Of a stretch of DNA of 33,850 nucleotides, positions 6,926-33,008 are shown in pieces. Each line of letters begins with the position of its first letter. Within the stretch, counting starts at the first letter, position 1. Made by a program: the position numbers and the translations under genes. The notes beneath the pieces are model-generated. The model worked only from the letters and a program-made list of their open reading frames with translations. It was not told where the DNA came from and did no database searches. Source of the stretch: Gammaproteobacteria bacterium (GTDB lineage Bacteria; Pseudomonadota; Gammaproteobacteria; BMS3Bbin11); contig JASJFV010000183.1 of the NCBI GenBank assembly GCA_033791885.1, positions 1 through 33,850 on the forward strand, given 5' to 3'.

Positions 6926-7020
6926 TTGTGCTGGCGCACGGCTGATTCGGGTTCTTTTTCTGTATTATGCTGGCACATGGCTGGGTGGCTATTATTTTTT
7001 ATATTATGCTAGCGCATGAC
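6926..7020. repeat. Three short quasi-palindromic units (TRTGCTRGCRCA) at a 39-bp period
   Basis: Units start at 6927, 6966 and 7005; related inverted unit at 7693-7709 and a unit near 32895. Confidence 0.65.
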
Positions 7021-7026
7021 CGTGTT

Positions 7027-7628
7027 TTTCGCCCTTTTTGGGCGAGTATCTTTTCTTTGCGTGGCCAAAGAAAAGGTACCAAAAGAAAGGCCACTCTACC
7101 GTGTTGGCCTTCGGCGTCTCTGTGCGCTTCAGCTTAGAGCGGGCGCTGCGGAACTCGCTATCGCTCAGACAGTCCTCGCGCTACTCCGCTCTAAGCCTCC
7201 AGTGCTCGACAACACAAAAGGGGATATAAGATCAAAAAAAAGTCAAAACCTGTTCGGTGACGTCTGATACGGTATTACAAACACCTTAACTTTTCTTCCG
7301 TCATACCGGCGAATGCCGGTATCCAGAAATAGTATAAATAATGGATTTCGGCTAGAGGCATGCCGGAATGACGATAATTAATTCCTCTTTTGTACTTAGT
7401 CTTTAGTCTTTGCTCTTGATCTTAAACCTCCCGTTCAGGCTCGCCGAGAAGCACAGGATGAGCCGGAGATTTCGGGGTGTGACTGTCCGAGCGTAAGCGA
7501 GTTTCACATCCCGCCAGCTCATTCGAGCATCGCAGGGCACCCGCAGGGCGAGCATGTTGGGTGTCATTTCTTTTGGTACCTTTTCTTTAGACAAGTAAAG
7601 AAAAGGTACTCGCCCATAAAGGCGGAAA
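7027..7628. repeat. Composite structured non-coding element, copy 1 (arm A ~7027-7225, central palindrome 7299-7373, arm B ~7428-7628); MITE-like or ncRNA
   Basis: ~60-bp related inverted termini; colinear with the reverse complement of 32290-32884. Confidence 0.85.
7299..7373. repeat. CGTC-type REP-like palindromic dimer
   Basis: CGTCATACCGGCgaatGCCGGTATCCA ... TGGATTTCGGC...GCCGGAATGACG; homologue at 32538-32611. Confidence 0.75.
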
Positions 7629-7721
7629 ACGAATGGAAATTCAATCGAAGATTAAGAAAAAGAAACCTGCCTGGGAAAAGCAAAACCAATCTGCCTTGCG
7701 CCAGCACAAATAAAAAACTAA

Positions 7722-18797: not shown

Positions 18798-18874
<77 letters not shown>

Positions 18875-19268: not shown

Positions 19269-20090
19269 CTAGTGTGACATCAGAACTGGGATGATCATTG
19301 ACGAGAGTATGGATTGGGTAACGCCGCCGAATATTTTTTGTCGAATACTGGGGGTGCCGTAACCGCCCATGATCAGAATATCAATATCGTTATCAGCTAT
19401 CTGATTCAGTATAGTGGTTTGTATATCGAAGGTACCCGGCTCAAGGTATCTTGCTTTTGCATTAATTTCGTGTCTTTCCAGGTGTTCTATTAGTTCTTCA
19501 ATGAGGACGTCTTCCGGGGTTGCCTTTTTGCTGGCAATAACCAGTATGGTAACTTCTTTTGATTTGGACAGAATCGGCATCGCATCGTGTAACGCCCGTG
19601 TGCCTGCAGGTGATCCATCCCAGGCGACCATGGCATTTTTACAGGGTATTCTGTGGGCGCCGATATAGGGCATAAAGAATATGGGGCGGCCACAGTGCAG
19701 CAAGACGTCTTCGGCGAATTCCATCAGACGGGAATAGTTTTCCCTGTCTGGGTTGGGTTGTCTTAACATGACCAGATCATAATTTCTGGCGTATTGTGCC
19801 ATCTTGCGTGCGCCTGCGGCCAGCTTGCCCGGAATGACAATCGTATTAACTGTCAGCCCTTCTTTTTTGCCAGCCTCGATGAATTCCTCTGCGAGTTGAT
19901 GTGCAAACTGCTTGGCAATGACAGCGTAAGCGTCCTCATCCTTAACCCTGAGATGTTCTGGCTTTATTGCTTCAAGAGATACACCTGTTAGTTTTGCACC
20001 ATGGGCTTTTGCCATATAAAAGGCGGCCTGTATGCGAACCGGGTTGCTTTTGCCATCATCAAGAAATACCAGTATGTCCTTGTAGTTCAT
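19269..20090 (-). CDS. Universal stress protein (tandem USP domains)
   Basis: YKDILVFLD, VAWDGSPAGTRALHDA, LIMGGYG, FGGVTQSIL, PVLMSH. Confidence 0.92.
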   Translation of the reverse strand: MNYKDILVFLDDGKSNPVRIQAAFYMAKAHGAKLTGVSLEAIKPEHLRVKDEDAYAVIAKQFAHQLAEEFIEAGKKEGLTVNTIVIPGKLAAGARKMAQYARNYDLVMLRQPNPDRENYSRLMEFAEDVLLHCGRPIFFMPYIGAHRIPCKNAMVAWDGSPAGTRALHDAMPILSKSKEVTILVIASKKATPEDVLIEELIEHLERHEINAKARYLEPGTFDIQTTILNQIADNDIDILIMGGYGTPSIRQKIFGGVTQSILSSMIIPVLMSH

Positions 20091-31158: not shown

Positions 31159-31209
31159 GGACTCATAATCCCCTGGTCCGGGGTTCGACTCCCTATGAGC
31201 CCACCAACA
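31159..31209 (+). repeat. Distal att site: partial 3' copy of tRNA-Ile2
   Basis: GGACTCATAATCCCCTGGTCCGGGGTTCGACTCCCTATGAGCCCACCAACA, 46/51 identical to 18827-18877; lacks the tRNA 5' half. Confidence 0.88.
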
Positions 31210-32054: not shown

Positions 32055-32289
32055 GTGCCAGAGAAAAATGCATCATCCATAATAAAAGCAGCACATCAAG
32101 AAGCCCACATGCATGCTTGCCGATATCCTTATCAGCGTTACATTTTTACGGCACAGCAGGACTTTATAGAACTTGAGTCGATAAAGATGTGACTTATTCA
32201 CGTTTTGAGAAAAAAAACATCTTTCTGATATTTCACTTTTCTATGAGTGTATTTCTTTTTTCTATTTTGCTCTGTTGTTCAGCTTTAGA

Positions 32290-32884
32290 TTTCGCCCATA
32301 AAGGCGAGTATCTTTTCTTTGCTTATCCAAAGAAAAGTCACCAAAAGAAAGGATACCCGACATGCACGCCCTGCAGGTGCCCTGCGATGCTCGACTGAAC
32401 CGGCGGGATGTGAACTCGCTGTCGCTCGGACAGCACATCCCGACATCCCCGTCTCATCCTGTGCTTCTCGGCGAGCCTGAACGGGAGATTTTTAAATCAA
32501 GAGAAAATACGATGACCAAAGATAAAAAAATCATTATCGTCATTCTGGCATGCCTCTGGCCGGAAGCCATCCTTTTACTCTTTCTGGATACCGGCCTACG
32601 CCGGTATGACGATTGTGTGTTCTGGATGGGTGATCTTTCTTGTCAGGTTCCATTGAACAGATTTTTAATTGGTTCTTGATGCATCCTTCCTTTTTGTGTT
32701 GTCGAGCACTGGAGGCTTAGAGCGGAATCGCGCGAGGACTGTTTGAGCGATAGCGAGTTCCACAGCGCCCGCTCTAAGCTGAAGCGCACAGAGAAGCCGG
32801 AGGCCAACATGGTAGGGTGGCTTTTCTTTTGGTACCTTTTCTTTGGCCACTGAAAGAAAAGATACTCGCCCATAAAGGGTGAAA
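32290..32884. repeat. Composite structured non-coding element, copy 2, inverted (arm B ~32290-32487, central palindrome 32538-32611, arm A ~32689-32884)
   Basis: Reverse complement aligns module by module with 7027-7628. Confidence 0.85.
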
Positions 32885-33008
32885 CACTCGGCAGTGTGCT
32901 AGCACAATAGAGAACAAGAAATGAACCCACCCATGAAGGACTAAAATCTAACTAAGACTTATACACTAGTATAAAAACTAGCCCTGTAATAGCAAAAAAC
33001 TCAACAAG

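Follow-up and report, generated by a model that had tools for sequence, protein, structure and literature searches.

A probable triple-helix pseudoknot at the 3' ends of divergent, TwoAYGGAY-related RNA-like units in a gammaproteobacterium

The subject of this study is a repeated element found in 33,850 nucleotides of gammaproteobacterial DNA (contig JASJFV010000183.1), a stretch referred to below as the window. Two parts of the window that lack an open reading frame (ORF), 7026−7629 and 32290−32884, are copies of each other in opposite orientation and are 81−85% identical. Their neighbors are ordinary genes, for a Dyp peroxidase and BacA at the first and for a Crp-family regulator and a rhodanese at the second. 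Each part is a doublet, in which two imperfectly inverted arms of ~200 nt (71% complementary) flank a center of ~200 nt. The arms are the 3' domains of structured, ORF-less, RNA-like units of ~200 nt arranged in divergent pairs of the extended TwoAYGGAY type, and the window copies are a divergent variant of that family, without its AYGGAY motif, in a new lineage. Each arm ends in a pseudoknot that, as judged from sequence comparison, very probably contains a long helix of three strands, a fold otherwise encountered chiefly in human and viral RNAs.

A preliminary description of the window had placed a motif at 7562−7609 (+), 7046−7094 (−), 32817−32865 (+), and 32308−32355 (−). Re-reading of the sequence bore out all four positions; the extent given for the arms, ~48 nt, was too short, the arms being ~200 nt long and of two diverged paralogous types, A and B, placed back to back. 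Read outward, the order is P1a, TTTCTTTT, GGT(AC/GA)C, TTTTCTTT, P1b, 2−3 nt, AAAGAAAAG, 4 nt, and a short G+C hairpin. Four copies of the 22-mer TTTCTTTTGGTNNCTTTTCTTT are present in the window, where 0.01 would be expected, and four was reached in 0 of 100 shuffles. Below, P1 is the stem formed by P1a and P1b, S2 is the second stem, a is the linker proposed as third strand, and b and c are the S2 strands that face it, c being the purine strand. The features are as follows.

7026..7629: doublet 1, divergent units A1 (−) and B1 (+), center ~200 nt; no ORF of note; inverted repeat I2, 7026−7174 versus 7481−7629, 71%
7026..7223 (−): unit A1 (A-type); basal stem, long inner hairpin, small hairpin, predicted pseudoknot-triplex module, terminal hairpin; RNAfold z = −3.4
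7427..7629 (+): unit B1 (B-type), architecture as A1; RNAfold z = −3.5
7562..7565 (+): B1 P1a, TGTC; partner GACA at 7590−7593
7567..7574 (+): B1 candidate third strand a, TTTCTTTT; parallel match to 7597−7604
7576..7588 (+): B1 S2 5' strand, GTAC plus CTTTTCTTT; pairs with 7597−7609
7590..7593 (+): B1 P1b, GACA, within the S2 loop
7597..7609 (+): B1 S2 3' strand, purine strand AAAGAAAAG plus GTAC
7611..7624 (+): B1 terminal G+C hairpin, then AAAA; end of the conserved unit
7089..7094 (−): A1 P1a, GTGGCC on the minus strand; pairs with 7061−7066
7081..7088 (−): A1 candidate third strand a
7067..7079 (−): A1 S2 5' strand
7061..7066 (−): A1 P1b, GGCCAC
7046..7058 (−): A1 purine strand and extension, AAAGAAAAG plus ATAC; one C.A mismatch in the extension
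7028..7046 (−): A1 terminal hairpin
32290..32884: doublet 2, B2 (−) and A2 (+), inverted relative to doublet 1; repeats I1, I3, I4, D2, D4
32290..32487 (−): unit B2
32686..32884 (+): unit A2
32308..32355 (−): B2 predicted pseudoknot-triplex module; P1 TATCC/GGATA; a 32343−32350, b 32329−32337, c 32312−32320
32817..32865 (+): A2 predicted pseudoknot-triplex module; P1 GTGGC/GCCAC; a 32823−32830, b 32836−32844, c 32853−32861

The architecture listed for A1 and B1 is based on the consensus structure and pair counts of 45 full arms of the genus. Copies 83−85% identical to doublet 1 are present elsewhere in the genome and in the genus. The doublet centers (7299−7383 and 32528−32611) have conserved inverted repeats of their own, such as CGTCATACCGGCGAATGCCGGTATCCAGAA, which are 83−90% alike between the copies (I6, I7); a center could be the site of promoters or of another small RNA.

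Only the inner arm served as BLAST query in gathering the 45 genus arms, which kept the module from influencing their choice. RNAalifold predicted 44 pairs for these arms, 30 of them with compensatory changes. With S2 written out in full and P1 added as a pseudoknot (52 pairs in the whole structure), 93.8% of 2320 alignment cells held standard pairs, compared with 77.3% after shuffling; the observed level was reached in 0 of 500 shuffles, and slid partners gave only 33−47%. All five P1 pairs in this alignment had double changes. The genus cells are not independent events, because much of their signal stems from the old split between the A and B types. The covariation of P1 noted earlier in four arms was found again in 103 distinct arms of other species, where 66 different helices were present with a modal length of 5 bp. 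Mean contiguous P1 pairing in these arms was 4.1, versus 2.47 with swapped partners (maximum 2.91 of 500).

The covariation of P1 and S2 together sustains the H-type pseudoknot of the preliminary description, in which P1 crosses S2. The pairing proposed there for the second stem was also right, and its length was understated: S2 consists of 13 pairs, G-T-N-A-C-TTTTCTTT with AAAGAAAA-G-T-N-A-C, and the N pair of the extension covaries. The segments follow one another in the order S1a-L1-S2a-S1b-L3-S2b, with an L1 of 9−10 nt, an L2 of 0−2 nt, and an L3 of mostly 3 nt around the 13-bp S2. The same pairs identified the folded strand. In the S2 extension of the 103 arms there were 43 G-U and 3 A-C combinations, and in the genus alignment G-U occurred in 30 pairs and A-C in 13. 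Because G-U outnumbers A-C there, we concluded that the outward strand is the one that folds; this agrees with the strand of the matches to the RF01731 (TwoAYGGAY) covariance model described below.

The three strands of the module vary together. Two classes of arm were found in the genus, with a/b/c being TTTCTTTT/TTTTCTTT/AAAGAAAA in class 1 and TTTTCTTT/TTTCTTTT/AAAAGAAA in class 2. The U-rich linker had been described as a parallel, Hoogsteen-type match to the purine strand, and this relation held when it was examined in 29 divergent partner arms of exact-motif arms, which were chosen only by their position and an S2-like hairpin and not by strand a. The parallel match of linker to purine core was perfect in 22 of them and one position short of perfect in 5; of the 2 with a poorer match, one is a mis-oriented tandem copy. 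The parallel match exceeded the best antiparallel match in 17 arms, equaled it in 12, and fell below it in 0. The corresponding tally for the genus arms was not used, because 'AAAGAAAAGA' arms are understated in it by a closing G-C pair and over-long purine runs.

The preliminary description had also suggested asking if the third-strand C follows the G of the purine strand, and it does so in many independent variants. Across at least 12 variant cores the third-strand C moves, doubles, vanishes, or turns to G in step with the C-G or T-A pair of the duplex. Cores and third strands that match in this way are AAAAGAAA/TTTTCTTT, AAAGAAA/TTTCTTT, AAAAGAAAA/TTTTCTTTT, AAAGAGAA/TTTCTCT(T), AAGAGAAA/TTCTCTTT, AGAGAAA/TCTCTTT, GAAAGAAA/CTTTCTTT, and AAAAA/TTTTT. 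Others came from Bacteroides (GAAAGAAAAA/CTTTCTTTTT), a metagenome-assembled genome (MAG) of Gastranaerophilales (AAAGAAGAAAAAA/TTTCTTCTTTTTT, matching at 13 of 13 positions), locus L137 (GAAGAAAA/CTTCTTTT), genome G003 (AAAGAAGA/TTTCTTCT), and an RF01731-positive RNA at locus L196 (AAGAAAA/TTCTTTT). The matching third strand TTTCTCTT occurs three times in genome G123, and T3CT3 and T4CT4 are among the matching forms. Locus L053 has T-A in place of an A-T pair, and where this inversion falls the third strand carries a G; G.T-A is the classical triple for such an inversion. At two C-G inversions the third strand keeps its T. No part of the arm is as well conserved across the genus alignment as the third strand (0.96, with 0.92 for b, 0.93 for c, 0.66−0.69 for P1, and 0.62 for L3), and this conservation is hard to explain for a mere loop. 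Comparison establishes the secondary structure with its pseudoknot, which strand folds, and the covariation of all three strands; from the covariation we infer that the triples form physically.

TwoAYGGAY RNAs (RF01731) were first reported in 2010 (Weinberg 2010, PMC2864571). A preprint dated 24 September 2026 (Li et al. 2026, bioRxiv 10.64898/2026.09.22.753630) describes in its text a form in Pseudomonadota with an elongated basal stem, three extra hairpins, and a 3' pseudoknot, with short repeats on the 5' side, an array of the 5−6-nt word GMTBT(T), and larger or repetitive extragenic palindromic (REP) repeats on the 3' side. According to the same text, 68.4% of doublets are divergent, the median gap is 249 bp (interquartile range 163−312 bp), and copy number is very variable; function is left open, with a Csr/Rsm sponge proposed, and the expansion is called 'mobile-element-like'. 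Among the papers examined that name TwoAYGGAY, this preprint alone treats the extension.

The link between the window units and this family is provided by other genomes. In genome G062 the module lies 45−55 nt downstream of four of four RF01731 matches, on the same strand, and the start of these RNAs (CUCCCGUU.AG.GCU.GCCG) and the 3' strand of their basal stem align with the window arms. In both arms of a Pseudomaricurvus locus (L102), the module is immediately preceded on its 5' side by an RF01731 match of like strand. The six RF01731 matches of the A+T-rich genomes G110 and G079 are without the module. The window arms have an elongated basal stem, helices 1−4 of the genus alignment A1 being 93−100% paired with double changes; from their like positions, the pseudoknot of the preprint is presumably that of the module. 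The unit 5' ends are ~200 nt apart at both window loci, within the interquartile range of the preprint, and arm pairs are also present in other taxa.

The window copies are thus like the extended TwoAYGGAY RNAs in sharing basal stem and 5' start with RF01731-positive copies, in the 3' pseudoknot and terminal hairpin, in their divergent doublets with a gap of ~200 nt, in multiple copies of very variable number, and perhaps in palindromic repeats downstream. They are unlike them in having no AYGGAY loops, no RF01731 match, and no enrichment of the 5' words. The RF01731 model (gathering score 43 bits) had no match in the window, none at E ≤ 10 in 6900−7750, and 0 in the whole genome, and Rfam reported nothing on the window arms. 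The two AYGGAY-loop hairpins on a common basal stem are not present in these arms; instead, one long hairpin with the apex GAGCG(U/A)(A/U)AGCGAG lies between the basal stem strands. The six 5' GMTBT(T) repeat words are not enriched, with 0−2 in the 200 nt upstream of each unit and a window background of 1.25; a T-rich repeat of 6−7 nt (TTAGTC/TTTGTC...), akin to the GMTBT(T) array, is present upstream of the B-type arms. REP-like palindromes lie outside three of the four arms. Another difference is that Arenicellales, the order of the nearest MAGs, is not discussed in the text of the preprint. The RNA family and its 3' pseudoknot were therefore known already, and the variant without AYGGAY in a new lineage is new.

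Two side observations concern family names. The R200 repeat of Pseudomonas fluorescens SBW25 (320 bp, 47 copies; PMC2718517, Table 3) is similar in size and number to the TwoAYGGAY matches of that strain, of which the preprint text gives 48, and R200 may be TwoAYGGAY under an older name. In Burkholderia (L112:6299-6428 and L098), RF02421 appears to equal the 3' two-thirds of the module.

Copies are numerous in the source organism. Its draft genome (3.0 Mb, 396 contigs, 89% complete) gave 46 BLAST matches to doublet 1, many at contig ends, and 22 sites within three mismatches of the 22-mer, 18 of which had arm context by eye. The element was found in 10 of 10 other genomes of the genus and in the one other genome of the family. 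Sixteen of 41 sampled genomes of the class had a match; most other families sampled in the class were without copies. An exact-pattern scan with one genome per species gave at least 119 loci. Taxa among the matches listed, named as in the database records, are Xanthomonadales/Lysobacterales (Dyella, Stenotrophomonas, Xanthomonas, and Lysobacter), Burkholderiales, Aeromonas, Methylomonas, Methylophilus, and Kangiella, and also Nitrospirota, Desulfobacterales, Bacteroidota, Selenomonadales, Clostridia, and Melainabacteria; among these matches, the public copies most closely related to those of the window are in Arenicellales MAGs (L085, L169). In a plasmid collection the module was present on large replicons of Ralstonia, Burkholderia, Variovorax, Aeromonas, and Pasteurella, with no annotated feature beneath it. 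In a loose pyrimidine/purine pattern scan of 401 genomes of the class, controls scored as high as matches, and only three sites in genome G123 were used; no claim is drawn from genomes G050, G305, G151, G317, and G258.

We take the molecule to be RNA rather than single-stranded DNA. Contigs of RNA libraries (runs X1 and X7) cover the element and not its flanks, and the center is also covered in one RNA library; in DNA run X3 the element is 50−100 times more abundant than the flanks, so that this cover does not by itself point to RNA. In Burkholderia, the family Bp1_Cand684 (RF02421) starts ~10 nt after strand b and includes the purine strand and terminal hairpin, and the Bp1_Cand684_SIPHT small RNA was positive by reverse transcription PCR (RT-PCR) in Burkholderia according to the published account (Khoo 2012, PMC3521395).

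The reading that explains the whole best, and to which we give somewhat better than even confidence, is that the doublets encode outward-directed noncoding RNAs of ~200 nt of the extended TwoAYGGAY family, with a pseudoknot-triplex 3' domain that may act as a cap. Two RNAs would be encoded back to back and read outward from the common center of ~200 nt. The 3' domain would be an H-type pseudoknot in which P1 (4−6 bp) closes on the loop of the 13-bp hairpin S2. The 9−10-nt linker, UUUCUUUUG(G), would occupy the S2 major groove, run parallel to the purine strand AAAGAAAA, and form seven U.A-U triples and one C+.G-C triple, the latter plausibly setting the register. L1 would begin at the P1/S2 junction and run 5' to 3' along the purine strand; past the eight triples, G(G) alone would bridge the major groove, narrow in the A form, and reach the 5' end of S2 five pairs on. 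This geometry is that of telomerase RNA and SAM-II-type pseudoknots. The unit would end with the short G+C hairpin and GAAA.

Canonical TwoAYGGAY domains precede the module in some copies, the AYGGAY-less domain precedes it in the genus, and short unrelated 5' parts do so in Burkholderia, Firmicutes, and Bacteroidota. Because these 5' domains are quite different, we read the module as a portable 3' one. By analogy, its likeliest function, although we hold this with less than even confidence, would be that of a very stable portable 3' cap that stops 3'-to-5' exoribonucleases and fixes the 3' end and lifetime of the RNA, as helices of the MALAT1 and element for nuclear expression (ENE) type and REP hairpins do by other architectures. 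The main alternative, in which the agent that spreads the element, RNA- or single-stranded DNA-based, recognizes the module as a handle, seems rather doubtful, and an inward-facing insulator or terminator and a two-state switch are each improbable.

Several observations weigh against an RNA triple helix. As for the triples, most copies cannot separate a parallel match from an antiparallel one shifted by one base, because the common cores are nearly mirror-symmetric, and the case rests on the asymmetric variants. The rule is broken in L067 (6 of 8), L098, and L188, copies that look decayed, and a C+.G-C triple needs protonation. The mirror 22-mer also arises in another way: in 32 viral contigs (L215−L246) the form TTTCTTTTGGTTACTTTTCTTT occurs at 33 sites with the purine strand behind only 2, leaving 31 without it. 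T-rich low complexity, coding sequence, or a DNA-level feature are candidate sources of these sites. The contigs are mostly A+T-rich and rich in T tracts, and the two free bases are TA in most.

As for the pseudoknot, a C.A mismatch is present in the S2 extension of many A-type arms of the genus, with 20 of the 42 A-C cells at one pair, and in its TTTTCTTT-class arms P1 is not clear. L3 has only 2−3 nt for a P1 of 4−6 bp, which is tight by the usual stereochemistry of pseudoknots, so that P1 and the whole of S2 may not fully coexist. As for transcription, cover in RNA libraries is no proof, because carried-over DNA of high copy number would look alike. A scan of the doublet center for sigma-70-like promoters found none. 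The outward strand has GAAA(A) and not a U tract after the terminal hairpin, and the orientation of flanking genes around the 45 arms showed no bias (26/17 upstream, 21/19 downstream), a count blurred by spurious ORFs in G+C-rich genomes. Finally, single-stranded DNA of the outward strand would satisfy all of the comparative evidence.

The suggestion that the arms are the ends of a mobile element did not hold up, since no transposase, target duplication, or recurrent neighbor gene was found. The element was considered as a pair of transposon ends, and ORFs within 2.5 kb of the at least 119 loci were clustered; there was no transposase among the loci listed, and the recurrent ORFs near them were spurious ORFs within the repeat and unrelated housekeeping families (ABC transporter, AcrB, GGDEF-EAL, MgsA, and others). 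It was also considered as a MITE (miniature transposable element with inverted repeats). The imperfectly inverted arms are present, but no duplication was seen at either window copy and no transposase among the loci listed. At doublet 1, orthologues of BacA were found in seven relatives, one of which (G001) has an element at the corresponding position; the left flank lacks synteny.

The alternative that survives best, although we consider it unlikely, is that the fold is one of single-stranded DNA. In this case the outward strand would fold as an intrastrand DNA triplex with hairpins during replication or transfer, and an HUH/RAYT-type or other spreading enzyme would recognize the DNA fold together with neighboring REP-like palindromes. 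G.T wobbles and T.A-T and C+.G-C triples also form in DNA. Copy number differs widely within the genus and, as noted, many copies lie at contig ends. The doublet 2 locus is filled in one relative (G008), and no element was found there in four others (G002, G007, G005, and G006); the junction cannot be placed, because the spacers are too diverged. REP-like palindromes of the form TGCT[AG]GC[GA]CA[CT], ~40 nt apart, lie just outside the arms, and the genome holds 542 such sites, compared with 144 in a reversed-genome control. The genome (G000) also has four intact Y1_Tnp (IS200/RAYT-like) ORFs of 230−250 aa, which are candidate mobilizers of the REP-like repeats. These sites and ORFs are as follows.

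6929-6939, 6968-6978, 7007-7017 (+): REP-like palindromes
7696-7706 (−): REP-like palindrome
32894-32907: REP-like palindrome
C57:5158-5481, C92:452-775, C385:416-751, C112:1581-1913: Y1_Tnp ORFs (L189−L192)

According to the preprint text, the REP arrays of SBW25 keep a fixed position 3' of TwoAYGGAY, and this and the expansion it describes fit a spreading DNA element, as do the intrastrand triplex DNA repeats already reported in bacteria (PMC4666352). Against this, REP-like sites were not found beside the Y1_Tnp genes in the genome, and neither a target duplication nor a defined insertion site was seen. The family is defined as an RNA, a transcript that overlaps the module was detected by RT-PCR in Burkholderia, and a multi-helix architecture rich in G-U pairs is typical of RNAs; these points favor RNA over DNA. 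As an observation apart, the REP-like palindromes recall the SBW25 arrays. A Crp-type palindrome, TGTGA-N6-TCACG, lies at 32188−32202 between the genes for the Crp-family regulator and the rhodanese; five genomes of the genus conserve it at the orthologous position, and the insertion of doublet 2 lies between it and the rhodanese gene.

It is very unlikely, in our view, that there is no triple helix and that the linker is a Watson-Crick alternative partner of the purine strand, shifted by one base, making the module a two-state switch between linker-c and b-c pairing. The common cores (T3CT4, T4CT3, T3CT3, and T4CT4) do give 7 of 8 or equal scores in the antiparallel direction, which accounts for the 12 ties among 29 partner arms, but the antiparallel match exceeded the parallel one in none of them. 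The asymmetric cores decide in the same direction: parallel and antiparallel scores were 7 versus 5 for AGAGAAA/TCTCTTT, 10 versus 7 for GAAAGAAAAA, 13 versus 11 for the 13-mer, and 7 versus 6 for AAAGAGAA, and by eye GAAGAAAA/CTTCTTTT, AAAGAAGA/TTTCTTCT, and AAGAAAA/TTCTTTT also match only in parallel. Moreover, a switch partner would be expected to copy b as a direct repeat, and not to mirror it.

Least likely of all is a feature acting on double-stranded DNA or the opposite strand, be it an H-DNA mirror repeat, a protein site, or an inward-facing terminator (G+C hairpin, then CUUUUCUUU) that insulates the element from nearby transcription: both terminal hairpins scored terminator-like in the inward direction (7028−7046, +, and 7624−7611, −), the gene for BacA (7722−8519, −) is transcribed toward the element, and most viral sites have the a-b mirror without c, but the inward T run starts 5−6 nt past the stem, which makes a poor intrinsic terminator (a G+C hairpin directly followed by a U run was found in neither direction), the G-U and A-C counts favor the outward strand, the exact purine strand follows 104 of 124 bacterial 22-mer sites, and P1 covariation and a third strand that mirrors every duplex change are left unexplained.

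Other features of the window lie outside the doublets. A tRNA-Met(CAT) gene at 18798−18874 lies right after rpoD, and a 51-nt copy (90%) of its 3' half lies at 31159−31209, 12.3 kb downstream. This bracket looks like an island integrated in a tRNA; among the ORFs checked within it (two Usp, a binding protein, and two-component proteins) there was no integrase. Near the tRNA fragment, a 35-nt inverted repeat (91%, I8; 30626−30660 versus 30862−30896) surrounds 201 nt, possibly as a small MITE. The starts of two adjacent universal-stress-protein genes share a stretch of 62 nt (90%), at 20046−20107 and 20961−21022, and the genes look like tandem paralogues. The 27-nt unit CCGCCTTTTTCTTAACTGCCTTCTTAA is repeated head to tail at least six times in 33630−33845, up to the end of the window; the other strand of this repeat would give a lysine/alanine-rich repeat.

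If the RNA triple helix exists, it would be a new natural class, with eight triples in a repeated bacterial RNA. The eight-triple reading is backed by natural "mutate and rescue" variants at many positions, and this variant set, with its C moved, doubled, or lost and a T-A inversion met by G, would amount to a table of the base triples that evolution tolerates. The TwoAYGGAY repeats, which are enigmatic, would gain a testable structural core, and bacterial RNA engineering a compact stabilizing module. Tentatively, we propose more broadly that bacteria of several phyla carry an RNA triple helix of MALAT1 length (seven U.A-U and one C+.G-C, with 5 to 13 triples in variants) within a pseudoknot, as the portable 3' module of a self-spreading family of noncoding RNAs, where it may act as an exonuclease-proof cap or as a recognition or copying handle of an RNA or DNA strand.

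A triple-helix reading with three-way covariation was not found in the papers examined that name TwoAYGGAY or in the text of two reviews of RNA triple helices. The words 'triplex' and 'Hoogsteen' occur 0 times in the main text of the preprint; searches of the general triple-helix literature found no such bacterial element named (PMC12834306 is without bacterial content), and a literature search for the 10-mers of the motif returned primers only. In Burkholderia, the known family Bp1_Cand684 differs from the module in that RF02421 as defined leaves out the third strand and strand b, and because of this its boundaries may need revision; the copies there differ in their short 5' part and lack a clear P1.

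MITEs and REP/REPIN elements resemble the doublets in being short, ORF-less, multi-copy, and intergenic, with inverted arms. They differ in that no target duplication, matching transposase, or recurrent neighbor was found here, and in that the arms are diverged paralogues, each with its own internal pairings, and not one hairpin. The TMECO/BoxC repeats (Holder 2015, PMC4666352) likewise have, in the published description, three consecutive blocks on one strand that are able to form a triplex, and are multi-copy and intergenic with numbers very different in related strains. Theirs is, however, a G/C-rich purine motif, with the consensus CCCTCNCCC N3-6 GGGNGAGGG N3 GGGNGAGGG, studied as DNA, whereas the window motif is a T/A-rich pyrimidine motif inside a larger covarying fold that does not match this consensus; words of the module do not occur in PMC4666352.

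Riboswitch triple helices have the topology predicted here, S1, then a U-rich L1 in the major groove of S2, then S2, with U.A-U triples parallel to the purine strand. As described in the sources consulted, they have about two canonical U.A-U triples and ligand-dependent ones and lie in 5' leaders, whereas the module would have eight canonical triples (up to 13 in one lineage), is 3'-terminal and repeated, and has no sign of a ligand pocket. The text of two reviews (PMC7583470, PMC13541005) confines bacterial major-groove triple helices to riboswitch pockets, with about two canonical triples, and group II introns, and gives long stabilizing ones only for eukaryotic and viral RNAs. If its triples are physically confirmed, the helix described here would be the first long one of the stabilizing type known in bacteria.

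The likeness to ENE and MALAT1 drawn in the preliminary description is apt for the kind of triples and not for the architecture. The ENE grips the A-rich 3' tail of its own RNA in a U-rich internal loop, whereas the purine strand of the module is internal, closed by 4−5 further pairs and a hairpin and followed by GAAA(A), and the fold is a pseudoknot. In length and composition the two are alike: MALAT1 has nine U.A-U triples and one C.G-C in the reviews' account, and the module would have seven and one. Like the ENE, MALAT1, and PAN helices, the module lies at the 3' end of what is probably a noncoding RNA, and protection from 3' exonucleases is a plausible role for it.

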